Shown here in pieces: positions 36,719-39,726 of a DNA stretch of 64,000 nt. The notes under the pieces are model-generated. The model did not search any database, had not been told where the DNA came from, and saw only the letters and a program-made list of their open reading frames with translations. Made by a program: the position numbers and the translations under genes. The DNA is from Thermoplasmata archaeon (GTDB lineage: Archaea; Thermoplasmatota; Thermoplasmata; Thermoplasmatales; GCA-001856825), in assembly GCA_021792255.1 (NCBI GenBank), contig JAJYUZ010000002.1, positions 33,444 through 97,443 of the forward strand. Reading direction: 5' to 3'. Numbering within the stretch: position 1 is the stretch's first letter; every line of letters starts with the position of its first letter.

Positions 36719-38281
36719 ATGATATCTAATTCTGAAAACATGAAAACGGAAAGCGATGACTATCTGCGGGTCGAAGGTTTGAAAACTCAATTCTTCACAA
36801 GCAGAGGGATCGTCAAGGCACTGGACGGGATCAACTTTAACATAAAGAAGGGAGAAGTGTTTGGTTTAGTCGGCGAAAGTGGATGTGGCAAGAGCGTTAC
36901 CGCACAATCTATAATGTATCTTATTCCGGATCCACCGGGGAGAATAGTTGAGGGGAAAATATTCGTCGACAACGTAAACATGCTAAGCAGCCTAGAGAGA
37001 CTTGCGAGAATTAAAGTCAAGTCAGAAACGGACGTTAAGATCAAGAGAAACAAGAGATTGATAAAACGACACAACTACCTGCTTTCCAAGATACGTGGAA
37101 GAAAGCTTTCAATGATATTTCAGGAACCGACACTAGCGCTTAATCCCGTGCTTAGAGTAGGCGATCAGATCTCGGAAAACATCCTCCTCCATCTGAAGGT
37201 AGAAATGGCAAATGCCATCCTTAGACGAGAGATGGCAACCAGGAAAGATTACGAGTCTTTCGTCGAGAGAATAGTCCAAATCGAGAACAAAGATCAAAGG
37301 AGAAAGGAAATCAGATCGTGGTGCGAAAACTATTCGATTTCAGATGTAGAAGAGTTGGTTAGAAATGTCTTCGCCACCAATCAAGATCGAGAGACACTGA
37401 TAAAGAGCCTTGAAATCATAGTCGATGAACGAAAGAGTGGTACCGATATCCACCGATTAGCCCGGGCTAGGGAATACTATATCTATCAACAGAAAGTTTT
37501 TGAAGCGACTCTACTCGTTATGGAAGCGGAAAGTAGCAAAAATCAAGAACCGATAGATCAAGCAAGGTCCAATCTTAACAGTACAAAGAAGGAAGGTAGT
37601 TCGTTCCTTTCGTTTAGGATAATGAGTAAACTCATGCGAAAGAGAATCGAGGCTCCATTAAGGGACGCAGCCCAGAGAAGGGTTATCGAGCTGCTGACTC
37701 TGGTTAATATTTCAGAGCCTGAAAGAGCAGCGGTATCGTATCCACACGAACTGAGCGGCGGGATGCAGCAGAGAGTCATGATAGCAATGGCCCTAGCGAG
37801 CAATCCACAACTGCTAATTGCAGACGAGCCTACTACGGCACTGGATGTGACTACTCAAGCTCAGATTCTCGACCTCGTGAAGAACTTGAACAAAGAGTTT
37901 GGTTCATCCGTACTTTTCATTACGCACGATCTAGCCGTAATAGCGCAGATGTGCAACAGGGTAGGTGTGATGTACGCGGGTAATATAGTAGAAGAAGCCG
38001 ATGTCAGTACCATTTTCGATAACCCGAAACATCCTTACACGATCGGACTTCTCAAGGCCCTGCCCAGAGCCGACAGGATAGCAGGAAAGATGGTCAAGCT
38101 AGACACCATAGCAGGCACTGTACCCAATCTTATAACACCACCACCTGGATGCAGATTCCATCCCAGGTGCAAGTTCAAGATGGACATATGTGAGAAGAAG
38201 AAGCCGGAACTAGATGATCTGGGGGGAGCGCACAAGGTTGCGTGCTTCCTCTATCAAGAGCCAGGAGGTGCTGTTCAATGA
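36719..38281 (+). CDS. peptide ABC transporter ATP-binding protein (OppD/DppD-like) with large internal insertions
   Basis: ATG at 36719 lies 8 nt after a GGAGG (GTG at 36710 also possible). Motifs: Walker A GESGCGKS, Q-loop MIFQEP, signature LSGGMQQR, Walker B LLIADEPTTALD, and a C-terminal Cys motif CRFHPRCKFKMDIC...VAC. About 520 aa. Confidence 0.9.
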   Translation: MISNSENMKTESDDYLRVEGLKTQFFTSRGIVKALDGINFNIKKGEVFGLVGESGCGKSVTAQSIMYLIPDPPGRIVEGKIFVDNVNMLSSLERLARIKVKSETDVKIKRNKRLIKRHNYLLSKIRGRKLSMIFQEPTLALNPVLRVGDQISENILLHLKVEMANAILRREMATRKDYESFVERIVQIENKDQRRKEIRSWCENYSISDVEELVRNVFATNQDRETLIKSLEIIVDERKSGTDIHRLARAREYYIYQQKVFEATLLVMEAESSKNQEPIDQARSNLNSTKKEGSSFLSFRIMSKLMRKRIEAPLRDAAQRRVIELLTLVNISEPERAAVSYPHELSGGMQQRVMIAMALASNPQLLIADEPTTALDVTTQAQILDLVKNLNKEFGSSVLFITHDLAVIAQMCNRVGVMYAGNIVEEADVSTIFDNPKHPYTIGLLKALPRADRIAGKMVKLDTIAGTVPNLITPPPGCRFHPRCKFKMDICEKKKPELDDLGGAHKVACFLYQEPGGAVQ

Positions 38282-39726
38282 CTGATATAGAACAATCAAA
38301 CGGAGACGTGTTACTTTACGTTTCTCACTTAAAGAAATACTTTGATATCTCAAAATCTGGATTTAGGACCACCGGCCACGTTCGTGCAGTAGATGACGTC
38401 ACCTTTACCCTAAACAGCAACGAGACTCTCGGGGTCGTAGGTGAAACCGGTTGCGGAAAGACCACCCTCGGAAGACTTATCCTGAAACTACTTGATTCAA
38501 CGGATGGTAACGTTTATTTTAATCTTCCCAGAGGCGTCCTGGACAAAATCATGCAACTCGAGCGGGAACTCGAACTCCTAGGAGAAACGAAGAATGAAGA
38601 GAGTGAGAAGCGTACAAAATCGATAGTCAAAGAACTGGGAGAGATCAACAAGGAGTACTCACTGACCAAAATTAGATCGGGAAAAATGAAGAAGTACAGA
38701 AAGGATATGCAGCCTGTCTTCCAGGATCCTTTCAGTTCTCTCGATCCAAGACAGATCATTAGAGACGTACTGGCGGAACCAATGAAACTTCTCACAGACA
38801 TGAAGGGAGAAGAGATACTCGGTAGGAGCATGAACCTGATTGGGGAAGTTGGTCTAAGCGAAGATCATCTATACAGATTTCCCCACGAATTCAGTGGTGG
38901 CCAGAGACAGAGAATCGGTATAGCAAGGGCAATATCCATCGAGCCAAAACTGCTAGTTCTAGATGAACCGACTTCAGCTCTAGACGTTTCTGTTCAGGCA
39001 CAGATCCTCAACCTGCTGAAAGATCTCCAGGAACAGAAGAATCTCACCTTCATATTCATATCTCATCACCTCAATGTCATAAGACTGATGTCCGATAAGG
39101 TCGCAGTAATGTACCTTGGAAAGATCGTTGAGCTCGCCGATACCGAAACGCTTTTCACCAACATGCTGCACCCTTACACAGAGGCTTTGCTGTCTGCAAT
39201 ACCGCTTCCGGATCCAAAGGTAGCAAGATCCAGGATAATACTTGAAGGAGAGGTGCCGAATCCAGCAAATCCGCCAAAGGGGTGCCATTTCCACCCAAGA
39301 TGCAAATATGCAATGACAAATTGTGGGTGGTCACCAAGAGATTTTGTAATGCCACTGCAGGAAATGCTCGAGCCGCTAAGAGTGAAGGAGAGTAATATTC
39401 TCCCAGCCACAAAAGAAATTCTTACGGACGAATCTTCAAATTCGATAGAAGTGGTTTTTGAAACTGGAATAAATTCACAGCAGTTTGAAACGTTCAAGGG
39501 CATGCTAAACGAGTCTGCTTCAAAAACGAACGGTGTCAGATTTAGGGCGATCACAAGTATTTCTCTATCACAAACAGGATCCTCTATAGTCATCGCAATA
39601 AAAGAATCAGACGTCCCAAGGCTGAAAGAGATCAAACCCGGTCATTATGTTTCATGCCTCATGTACGAGAAGGGGGCAGAATCAACTGGGATCCGAGGAA
39701 GTAATGTCAATCCGGCCACGGGCTAA
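38278..39726 (+). CDS. peptide ABC transporter ATP-binding protein (OppF/DppF-like) with insertions
   Basis: The ATG overlaps the oppD stop (ATGA) and is preceded by GGAGG. Motifs: Walker A GETGCGKTT, Q-loop VFQDP, signature FSGGQRQR, Walker B LLVLDEPTSALD. The C-terminal motif CHFHPRCKYAMTNC is separated by about 100 aa from GHYVSC. Confidence 0.9.
   Translation: MTDIEQSNGDVLLYVSHLKKYFDISKSGFRTTGHVRAVDDVTFTLNSNETLGVVGETGCGKTTLGRLILKLLDSTDGNVYFNLPRGVLDKIMQLERELELLGETKNEESEKRTKSIVKELGEINKEYSLTKIRSGKMKKYRKDMQPVFQDPFSSLDPRQIIRDVLAEPMKLLTDMKGEEILGRSMNLIGEVGLSEDHLYRFPHEFSGGQRQRIGIARAISIEPKLLVLDEPTSALDVSVQAQILNLLKDLQEQKNLTFIFISHHLNVIRLMSDKVAVMYLGKIVELADTETLFTNMLHPYTEALLSAIPLPDPKVARSRIILEGEVPNPANPPKGCHFHPRCKYAMTNCGWSPRDFVMPLQEMLEPLRVKESNILPATKEILTDESSNSIEVVFETGINSQQFETFKGMLNESASKTNGVRFRAITSISLSQTGSSIVIAIKESDVPRLKEIKPGHYVSCLMYEKGAESTGIRGSNVNPATG

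Follow-up and report, generated by a model that had tools for sequence, protein, structure and literature searches.

The window analysed here is a 64,000-nucleotide stretch of a Thermoplasmata archaeon genome (GenBank assembly GCA_021792255.1, contig JAJYUZ010000002.1, positions 33,444 to 97,443 of the forward strand). It contains an operon for an oligopeptide/dipeptide (Opp/Dpp)-type transporter, in which both ATP-binding cassette (ABC) ATPases, one OppD-like and one OppF-like, carry large inserts. One of these is an α/β domain in the OppF-like subunit, referred to below as the GW domain, which lies between the third and fourth cysteines of the C-terminal iron-sulfur (Fe-S) motif. The other three inserts lie within the nucleotide-binding domains (NBDs), at site A, between the Walker A motif and the Q-loop, or at site B, between the Q-loop and the ABC signature. 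The two genes and their features, with protein positions in amino acids (aa), are as follows.

36719..38281, forward strand: oppD-like ABC ATPase, 520 aa from ATG; Pfam ABC_tran and oligo_HPY; closest PDB entries Mycobacterium tuberculosis OppD and Escherichia coli OppD/DppD
36959..37069, forward strand: OppD insert A, aa 84–120, between Walker A and Q-loop; no counterpart in M. tuberculosis OppD; about 28 aa longer
37193..37660, forward strand: OppD insert B, aa 162–317, in the helical subdomain from the Q-loop helix to the pre-signature helix; 156 aa against 5 aa in M. tuberculosis OppD, about 150 extra
37448..37633, forward strand: helical hairpin inside insert B, aa 247–308, two helices of about 30 residues each (244–273 and 276–305 in AlphaFold2 model numbering), two-residue turn at aa 277/278
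38150..38245, forward strand: OppD Fe-S ligand motif C-x5-C-x6-C-x17-C, Cys481/487/494/512; spacing identical to E. coli DppD Cys284/290/297/315
38278..39726, forward strand: oppF-like ABC ATPase, 482 aa, ATG 38278; Pfam ABC_tran and oligo_HPY; closest PDB entries M. tuberculosis OppD NBD2 and E. coli OppF/DppF
38524..38673, forward strand: OppF insert A, aa 83–132 (about 50 aa), before the Q-loop at the site of OppD insert A; unaligned to PDB relatives
39283..39324, forward strand: OppF Fe-S ligands 1–3, Cys336, Cys342 and Cys349, CHFHPRCKYAMTNC; invariant in 114 distinct homologues
39325..39615, forward strand: GW domain, aa 350–446, α/β, between Fe-S ligands 3 and 4; predicted by AlphaFold2
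39616..39657, forward strand: canonical Fe-S domain resumes, PRLKEIKPGHYVSC, with ligand 4, Cys460; P, L, E, H and C invariant in the homologue alignment

Two canonical ATPase cores interrupted by discrete inserts

Residues of the OppD-like protein are numbered on the 523-aa form that begins at GTG 36710; the 520-aa form, which starts at ATG 36719, is 100% identical to database protein P0001. The oppF-like gene almost certainly starts at ATG 38278 and not at GTG 38242 (a 494-aa open reading frame, ORF), since that ATG forms a 4-nucleotide ATGA overlap with the oppD stop codon and homologues are 477–494 aa long. Both ORFs are continuous reading frames. Solved relatives have 327–336 aa per NBD, so that the excess is about 185 aa in the OppD-like and about 148 aa in the OppF-like protein, in line with a preliminary description, made from the sequence alone, that called both subunits longer than usual.

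Both proteins match Pfam ABC_tran with E values of about 1e-26, and oligo_HPY with 72.9 bits (OppD-like) and 71.4 bits (OppF-like) against a cut-off of 27.1. The OppD-like protein has Walker A GESGCGKS at aa 55–62, the Q-loop IFQEP at 136–140 and the signature LSGGMQQR at 348–355, together with LLIADE and ITHDL; the corresponding OppF-like motifs are GETGCGKT, VFQDP, FSGGQRQR, LLVLDE and ISHHL. Walker A, Q-loop, signature, Walker B with the catalytic Glu and the H-loop are all consensus in both subunits and, judged on these motifs, both ATP sites should therefore be active.

The excess length is confined to a few positions. A phmmer alignment of the OppD-like protein with M. tuberculosis OppD (8j5q_D) falls into three blocks (query 19–75 on 5–61, 121–161 on 79–119 and 318–514 on 125–319), and the OppF-like protein aligns to PDB relatives over residues 9–82 and 133–350. 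In a Foldseek search, the full OppD model gave a TM-score of 0.87 when normalised to E. coli OppD/DppD and 0.55 when normalised to the query. The OppD model combines a canonical core with about 40% of chain that has no match. The alignments to characterised Opp/Dpp proteins thus show discrete insertions and not diffuse length variation, and the individual estimates of the preliminary description were close: Walker A to the Q-loop Gln spans 76 aa in the OppD-like protein (about 78 claimed), the Q-loop to the signature spans the claimed 210 aa, the helical insertion of about 150 aa in the helical subdomain, placed at 37196–37654, was found at 37193–37660, and the insertion before the OppF Q-loop was found at aa 83–132.

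The GW domain lies between two predicted cluster ligands of the OppF-like subunit

The cysteines of the OppF-like protein (336, 342, 349 and 460) are arranged as C-x5-C-x6-C-x110-C, and the spacing between ligands 3 and 4 is x108–115 in 114 distinct homologues. In E. coli DppD and DppF, the cluster ligands are spaced C-x5-C-x6-C-x17-C and x16, respectively (PMC12136057). The difference between x110 and x16–17 corresponds to about 94–97 residues inserted between ligands 3 and 4. The inserted stretch begins directly behind ligand 3 and ends shortly ahead of the segment P-x-L...H-x-x-x-C, in which ligand 4 lies. The insert splits the cysteine motif, as had been proposed, and does so exactly between these two ligands; the OppD-like motif is contiguous, also as proposed. 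Counted from the sequence, the four cysteines of a [4Fe-4S] site are thus kept in both subunits, at the exact x17 spacing in the OppD-like protein and with a last spacing of x110 in the OppF-like protein. That such cysteines ligate a [4Fe-4S] cluster in relatives is documented for M. tuberculosis OppD and E. coli DppD/DppF (PMC12136057); the preliminary description had mentioned an Fe-S cluster in a mycobacterial Opp system.

We modelled the OppF C-terminal region (aa 280–482; model numbering plus 279 gives the protein position) with AlphaFold2 from 33 sequences, without the NBD and the cluster. The GW domain comprises, in order, a helix (74–85 in model numbering), a second helix (91–95), a β-hairpin (strands 99–105 and 110–115), a helix (121–135), a short helix (141–145) and a second β-hairpin (strands 146–151 and 157–162). 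Its predicted local distance difference test (pLDDT) values are 88–97, while the cluster-binding flanks are poorly modelled; the confident prediction of the domain despite its poor flanks points to an autonomous fold.

Among homologues the GW domain varies in length only between 95 and 102 aa, with a mean identity of 36% against 73% for the core. The Thermoplasmatota inserts always start with Cys-Gly-Trp, and only G1, W2, S3, P4, D6, P27 and G70 reach 90% conservation in that phylum. In the archaeal, actinobacterial and rhodobacterial groups alike, conservation is centred on GW[S/E]x[R/D][D/E] and the first helix, beside ligand 3, and the remainder is variable.

The GW domain matched nothing in Pfam (E up to 10), NCBIfam or PDB sequence profiles. 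Searched with a GW-domain profile, 1.84e9 representative proteins yielded 18 clusters; each is either an OppF-like protein or a C-terminal piece of one whose first residue is the Met of 'AM.NCGW'. Compared with the PDB in Foldseek, the OppF C-terminal model gave a best E value of 0.04; the weak, non-significant matches to EpsL/PulL C-terminal domains, ArgR and pieces of cluster-C binding proteins were dismissed.

Inserts within the nucleotide-binding domains

The full-length OppD-like protein was modelled with AlphaFold2 from 44 sequences (predicted template modelling score 0.81; adding 3 to a model position gives the position in the 523-aa form). Insert A is predicted to form a β-hairpin (strands 96–100 and 106–110) followed by a helix (112–125) that extends past aa 120, with a pLDDT of about 88. 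It is basic, with a net charge of +7 over aa 84–125, and comparatively well conserved (60% mean identity against 73% in the core), with a constant length of 36–37 aa in 116 homologues.

Insert B is all-helical in the model (pLDDT 85–93), with five helices across 160–237 and then the two helices of the hairpin, 244–273 and 276–305. Its body is only 25–29% identical among homologues; its length is kept, with a median of 157 aa. Five homologues (P0060, P0074, P0046, P0049 and P0051) carry an additional 47 to about 120 aa precisely at the hairpin turn, aa 277/278, and from this location of the expansions we infer that the hairpin behaves as a projecting arm with an unconstrained tip. Estimated from two 30-residue helices of the model, the arm would be about 45 Å long. 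In P0049 and P0051, OppD-like proteins of 642–647 aa, the tip expansion of about 120 aa includes a segment resembling the 'W.R.FG....E' motif of the preceding helical bundle, which suggests an internal duplication within insert B.

Insert A of the OppF-like protein is charged (20% Glu, 14% Lys), probably helical to judge from its sequence, 32% identical among homologues and 45–67 aa long. A metagenomic OppF-like protein of 481 aa (P0252) has the same inserts and a split cysteine motif (x113), but a degenerate signature, LSVSQ, and Walker B, ILDDP; its sequence suggests a catalytically inactive variant.

Insert B was without a match in Pfam, NCBIfam and PDB sequence profiles, and a profile search with it returned solely two ABC ATPase fragments. 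With permissive thresholds, nothing meaningful was found for any of the four excised inserts in Pfam and NCBIfam, and nothing below E 0.01 in PDB sequence profiles for the GW domain and insert B. The literature searched yielded no account of Opp ATPases, archaeal or bacterial, that carry such inserts.

The GW domain is widespread, and the NBD inserts form a graded series

The best-scoring homologues, 116 OppD-like (504–574 aa) and 115 OppF-like (455–517 aa), align through the inserts nearly gap-free. Where named, their sources are Thermoplasmatota (Thermoplasma, Cuniculiplasma, Thermoplasmataceae and metagenome-assembled genomes, MAGs, of Methanomassiliicoccales), so that the inserts are indeed conserved in Thermoplasmata orthologues, a point that the preliminary description had raised for checking. 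The complete genome of T. volcanium GSS1 has an adjacent pair, BAB60495/BAB60494, with identical architecture and operon.

A degenerate DNA pattern for C.FH.RC-x6-CGW (38 bits), run on a single genome from each GTDB species, gave at least 120 loci. Nearly all encode an Opp/Dpp ATPase in which 93–114 residues separate ligand 3 from the next Cys; the others have an extra Cys within an equally long tail. One locus (L101) is a chance match, one has a longer spacing (L004, x152), and one from Methanomassiliicoccales has x36 (L105). The GW insert is thus present in at least about 110 species of many phyla, usually without the other inserts. Thermoplasmatota are among the hosts. Many are Actinomycetota (Nocardioides, Streptomyces, Phytoactinopolyspora, Desertimonas, Solirubrobacterales, Gaiellales, Acidimicrobiia), and the rest include Rhodobacteraceae and other Alpha- and Gammaproteobacteria, Chloroflexota, Verrucomicrobiota, Acidobacteriota, Halobacteroidaceae and Synergistaceae. 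In view of these bacterial loci, a Thermoplasmata-specific origin of the Fe-S-loop insert was rejected.

Among the loci listed, it is invariably the F-type unit that carries the insert, and the visible D-type partner, or the first NBD of fusions, nearly always has x16–17 (a few x12–23). In seven bacterial loci (L113, L120, L024, L035, L069, L088 and L115), the GW-type unit lies in an ORF of about 760–960 aa, consistent with fused two-NBD proteins. Two NBDs are visible in L113 and L120, the first with x16–17 and the second with the insert (x103) or an interrupted spacing (x40).

The bacterial GW inserts, like the archaeal ones, were without a match in Pfam (E up to 10) and the PDB. The actinobacterial and rhodobacterial inserts align to each other with an hhalign E value of 2e-6. 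Since the archaeal and bacterial domains share insertion point, start motif, length and element order, they are likely to be homologous.

The alignment places the NBD inserts of the relatives at the same two sites, A and B, and the distance from Walker A to the signature (in aa) rises stepwise.

Most Actinomycetota: 109–118 in D- and F-type units; canonical, GW domain only
Rhodobacteraceae/Acidimicrobiia group: D-type 166–205, F-type 129–140
L003 and L078: D-type about 247, F-type 127–133
Thermoplasmatales, including the window: D-type 290–294, F-type 146–152
P0040, P0046, P0049 and P0051: D-type about 395, F-type not seen

The window proteins are not the extreme of this series, given the values of about 395 aa in its last members.

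Site A is also occupied by quite different elements. In five loci from Thermoplasmata and 'Methanobacteriota' MAGs (L045, L082, L114, L119 and L004), the GW-type subunit has a hydrophobic insert of about 170 aa at this site, and Walker A to signature is 280–289 aa in the ATPases of this group. Hydropathy analysis of L045 shows four transmembrane-like segments in the insert, that is, predicted transmembrane helices inside an NBD. An even number of such helices would place site A at the membrane face of the NBD, and on this sequence evidence site A is most probably directed towards the membrane or the permease.

In four loci from Acidimicrobiia and Rhodobacteraceae (L011, L017, L020 and L027), the OppD-like partner has Cys-rich repeats of the CxxCxGxG type at site A, for example CTSCDGAGCSTCAGTG...CPVCSGSGCDTCEQTG; these give a weak match to DnaJ_CXXCXGXG (E 3e-4), under the Pfam cut-off. 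The GW-type OppF-like protein of one Thermoplasmata MAG (L053) has a zinc-ribbon-like insert, CPNC...x33...CPVC, at site B.

Comparison with known transporters and ATPases

The window proteins share ABC_tran and oligo_HPY, the catalytic motifs and the four cysteines with E. coli OppD/OppF and DppD/DppF, M. tuberculosis OppD (Rv1281c) and Caldanaerobacter DppD (PDB 8z21, 8z1v–8z1y, 8j5q–8j5t, 4fwi). Two BPD_transp_1 permeases and an SBP_bac_5 binding protein are further common features of the gene sets. The solved relatives have none of the four inserts, and their ligand 3–4 spacing is 16–17, in contrast to 110 in the window OppF. All NCBIfam scores are below the cut-offs (in bits, NF007010 OppD, 301.7 against 575; NF008246 DppD, 272.5 against 541; NF008453, 340.8 against 408; NF011659 OppF, 330.5 against 540). 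By these sequence scores, the pair is Opp/Dpp ATPases at the Pfam level and not equivalogs of E. coli OppD/F or DppD/F, so that the substrate (peptide, nickel or sugar) is not assignable.

The long OppD and OppF of Mollicutes (NF043079, MMSYN1_0167, 561 positions; NF043078, MMSYN1_0168, 649 positions) are likewise far longer than usual. In profile coordinates, the Mollicutes OppD has about 220 extra positions before the Q-loop, the site A hot spot, and is without a site B insert. The window proteins score 274 against 740 bits and 285 against 800 bits with these models, and the excised insert B, GW domain and OppF insert A do not match them. Homology to the mycoplasma inserts was rejected, since the insert sites differ and the excised inserts are without a match.

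A helical element that projects from the NBD, placed in the helical subdomain between Q-loop and signature, is known from the 'arm' of ABC-F proteins, the coiled coil of Rad50 and SMC proteins and the insertion domains of UvrA. OppD insert B has the same topological place; no sequence or fold relation to these elements was detected. Their hosts are soluble, non-transporter ATPases whose arms bind ribosomes or DNA, whereas the host in the window is a membrane importer. SMC_N does match weakly across the split NBD, below threshold (31 bits against a cut-off of 40), and an SMC/Rad50-like protein was considered and rejected, as this score is under the cut-off and the hairpin is about 2 × 30 residues, with no hinge or hook.

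MetN (NIL/C2), ModC and MalK (TOBE-type) and OpuA (CBS) also have an extra compact C-terminal domain, a likeness of position only. The domains of those proteins are members of known families, attached behind the NBD, whereas the GW domain has its place inside the Fe-S loop and gave no match to any of these families.

Interpretation of the inserts

We consider it about an even proposition that the two proteins are working Opp/Dpp-type importer ATPases with four non-catalytic accessory modules that serve a structural or assembly role at three hot spots. The core function, ATP-driven import, is ordinary. As for the putative function of the inserts, we favour structural or assembly modules over a ligand sensor, since the bodies of the inserts change rapidly in evolution and show no conserved polar residues. 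In such a model, the site A elements, namely the basic hairpin of OppD and the charged insert of OppF, would buttress the ATPase against the anionic inner face of the membrane or against the permease, and the site B hairpin would be a free-standing projecting arm or scaffold. The GW domain would cap or buttress the cluster site of the F subunit and so tune the stability or accessibility of the cluster and, through it, the stability of the complex. The cluster domain is needed for the assembly and stability of E. coli DppBCDF and M. tuberculosis OppABCD, oxidants dissociate the E. coli Dpp complex, and roles of the Fe-S domain beyond assembly 'await further investigation' according to the E. 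coli DppBCDF study (PMC12136057).

Several points weigh against this interpretation. The placements of site A near the membrane, of the GW domain over the cluster and of the arm as freely projecting are all indirect. Only the F subunit is capped and the D cluster domain is canonical, which weakens a pure role in protecting the cluster or shielding it from oxygen. Cluster binding by the split OppF motif is an assumption. The scan pattern in part dictated the 'CGW' of the bacterial loci, although not their long Cys spacing, and the archaeal and actinobacterial inserts, colinear over 87 columns, align only weakly in hhalign (pairwise E 0.004, low probability). Fast evolution with kept length also fits neutral, tolerated insertions.

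The preliminary description had suggested a regulatory or sensing module. In a form of this idea that we judge rather unlikely, a cytoplasmic ligand would be bound, or redox state sensed, by the GW domain and perhaps also by insert B of OppD, and ATP hydrolysis would be gated in this way. The C-terminal domains of MetN, ModC and MalK act by trans-inhibition, and the C-terminal region in which the GW domain is inserted is the usual seat of importer regulatory domains, as in MetNI, ModBC and MalFGK2. The GW domain is also a compact α/β domain beside a redox-labile cluster, and in E. coli the state of that cluster controls whether the complex stays intact. An independent spread across numerous phyla suggests that the domain has a function on which selection can act. 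However, it shows no recognisable similarity to NIL, TOBE, ACT and CBS domains or to any Pfam, NCBIfam or PDB entry searched, it has no significant fold match, and its body evolves fast, at roughly half the identity of the core and with no conserved polar residues. The invariant or nearly invariant residues are confined to the first six or so positions beside the third cysteine, plus one Pro and one Gly, which argues against a conserved ligand pocket. A ligand sensor is thus less likely than a structural role, and the suggested regulatory or sensing module was not supported, with some likelihood left to a redox-sensing role.

Improbable for the set as a whole, yet a serious rival for insert B and OppF insert A, is an origin of the inserts as tolerated expansions at permissive loops of the NBD and the Fe-S domain, kept by a neutral, ratchet-like process and giving at most generic stabilisation. 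The fast-evolving bodies, the graded series from 109 to about 395 aa, and the very different occupants of the three sites in relatives (CxxCxGxG-type repeats, zinc-ribbon-like elements, transmembrane helices and variable helices) are what such a process would leave. It accounts less well for the tightly kept lengths and confidently predicted folds, for the nearly core-level conservation of OppD insert A, and for a GW domain that occupies one exact position across phyla, always in the F subunit among the loci listed.

An artefact or mobile insertion (a frameshift, an assembly error, an intein or a foreign gene fragment) has nothing beyond the unusual length to recommend it and is hardly credible, given the continuous frames, an even guanine-plus-cytosine content (0.42–0.48 across 36.5–40 kb, without discontinuity) and the identical architecture in more than 100 homologues from independent assemblies; these homologues and the T. 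volcanium genome refute frameshift or assembly error as the source of the length, and an intein is ruled out because the 97-aa insert ends in ...KESDV before PRLKEI, unlike the C-terminal His-Asn of an intein, and has no Hint/intein Pfam match.

A more specific role for the GW domain can be put forward as a tentative and, on balance, doubtful idea: it may be a widespread, unrecognised module that controls the [4Fe-4S] cluster of the F subunit, as a shield against oxygen or oxidants or as a redox switch. Because the cluster is known to help keep the translocator together, such a module would link the uptake of peptides to cellular redox conditions. If so, the GW domain, together with the relatives that have transmembrane helices or CxxCxGxG repeats, would mark a large, unstudied clade of elaborated Opp-type transporters. 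What is new lies at the level of domains: neither the Fe-S-loop domain nor the helical arm is annotated, and the clade has NBDs of unusual plasticity. A conserved domain between two cluster ligands amounts to a natural experiment on the function of the Fe-S domain in Opp/Dpp ATPases, and the boundaries of four domains are now delimited for use in deletion or expression. The annotation 'ABC transporter ATP-binding protein' masks this structural diversity, including NBDs with predicted transmembrane helices.

Genomic context

The two BPD_transp_1 permeases and the SBP_bac_5 protein expected of an Opp/Dpp operon are all found in the window.

34672..35748, forward strand: oppB-like permease, 358 aa; Pfam BPD_transp_1, E 4.8e-39; matching position in the T. 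volcanium operon
35760..36713, forward strand: oppC-like permease, 317 aa; Pfam BPD_transp_1, E 3.5e-27
39647..40072, forward strand: small predicted membrane ORF, 141 aa, hydrophobic; overlaps the last 80 nucleotides of oppF
40874..43747, reverse strand: cluster-C substrate-binding protein, 957 aa, N-terminal hydrophobic anchor; Pfam SBP_bac_5, E 2.3e-34; PKD_4 weak

The binding-protein gene (40874–43747) is convergent with the opp operon. In T. volcanium the gene order is SBP-B-C-D-F, with a 963-aa SBP_bac_5 gene directly 5' of oppB. The 141-aa ORF had no match in Pfam. A 111-aa ORF in the corresponding place after T. volcanium oppF is homologous to it (38% identity over 50 aa, E 4e-12), and the ORF may be a fifth gene of the operon, encoding a conserved small membrane subunit. 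The 957-aa binding protein is unusually long and very rich in N-x-S/T sequons, and one region of it weakly resembles PKD. Upstream of the operon, an ORF of 901 aa (30937–33642, reverse strand), whose translation was judged by eye, has DEAD/DEAH-box-helicase-like motifs, GSGKT and DEVH, and a C-terminal CxxC...CxxC pair.

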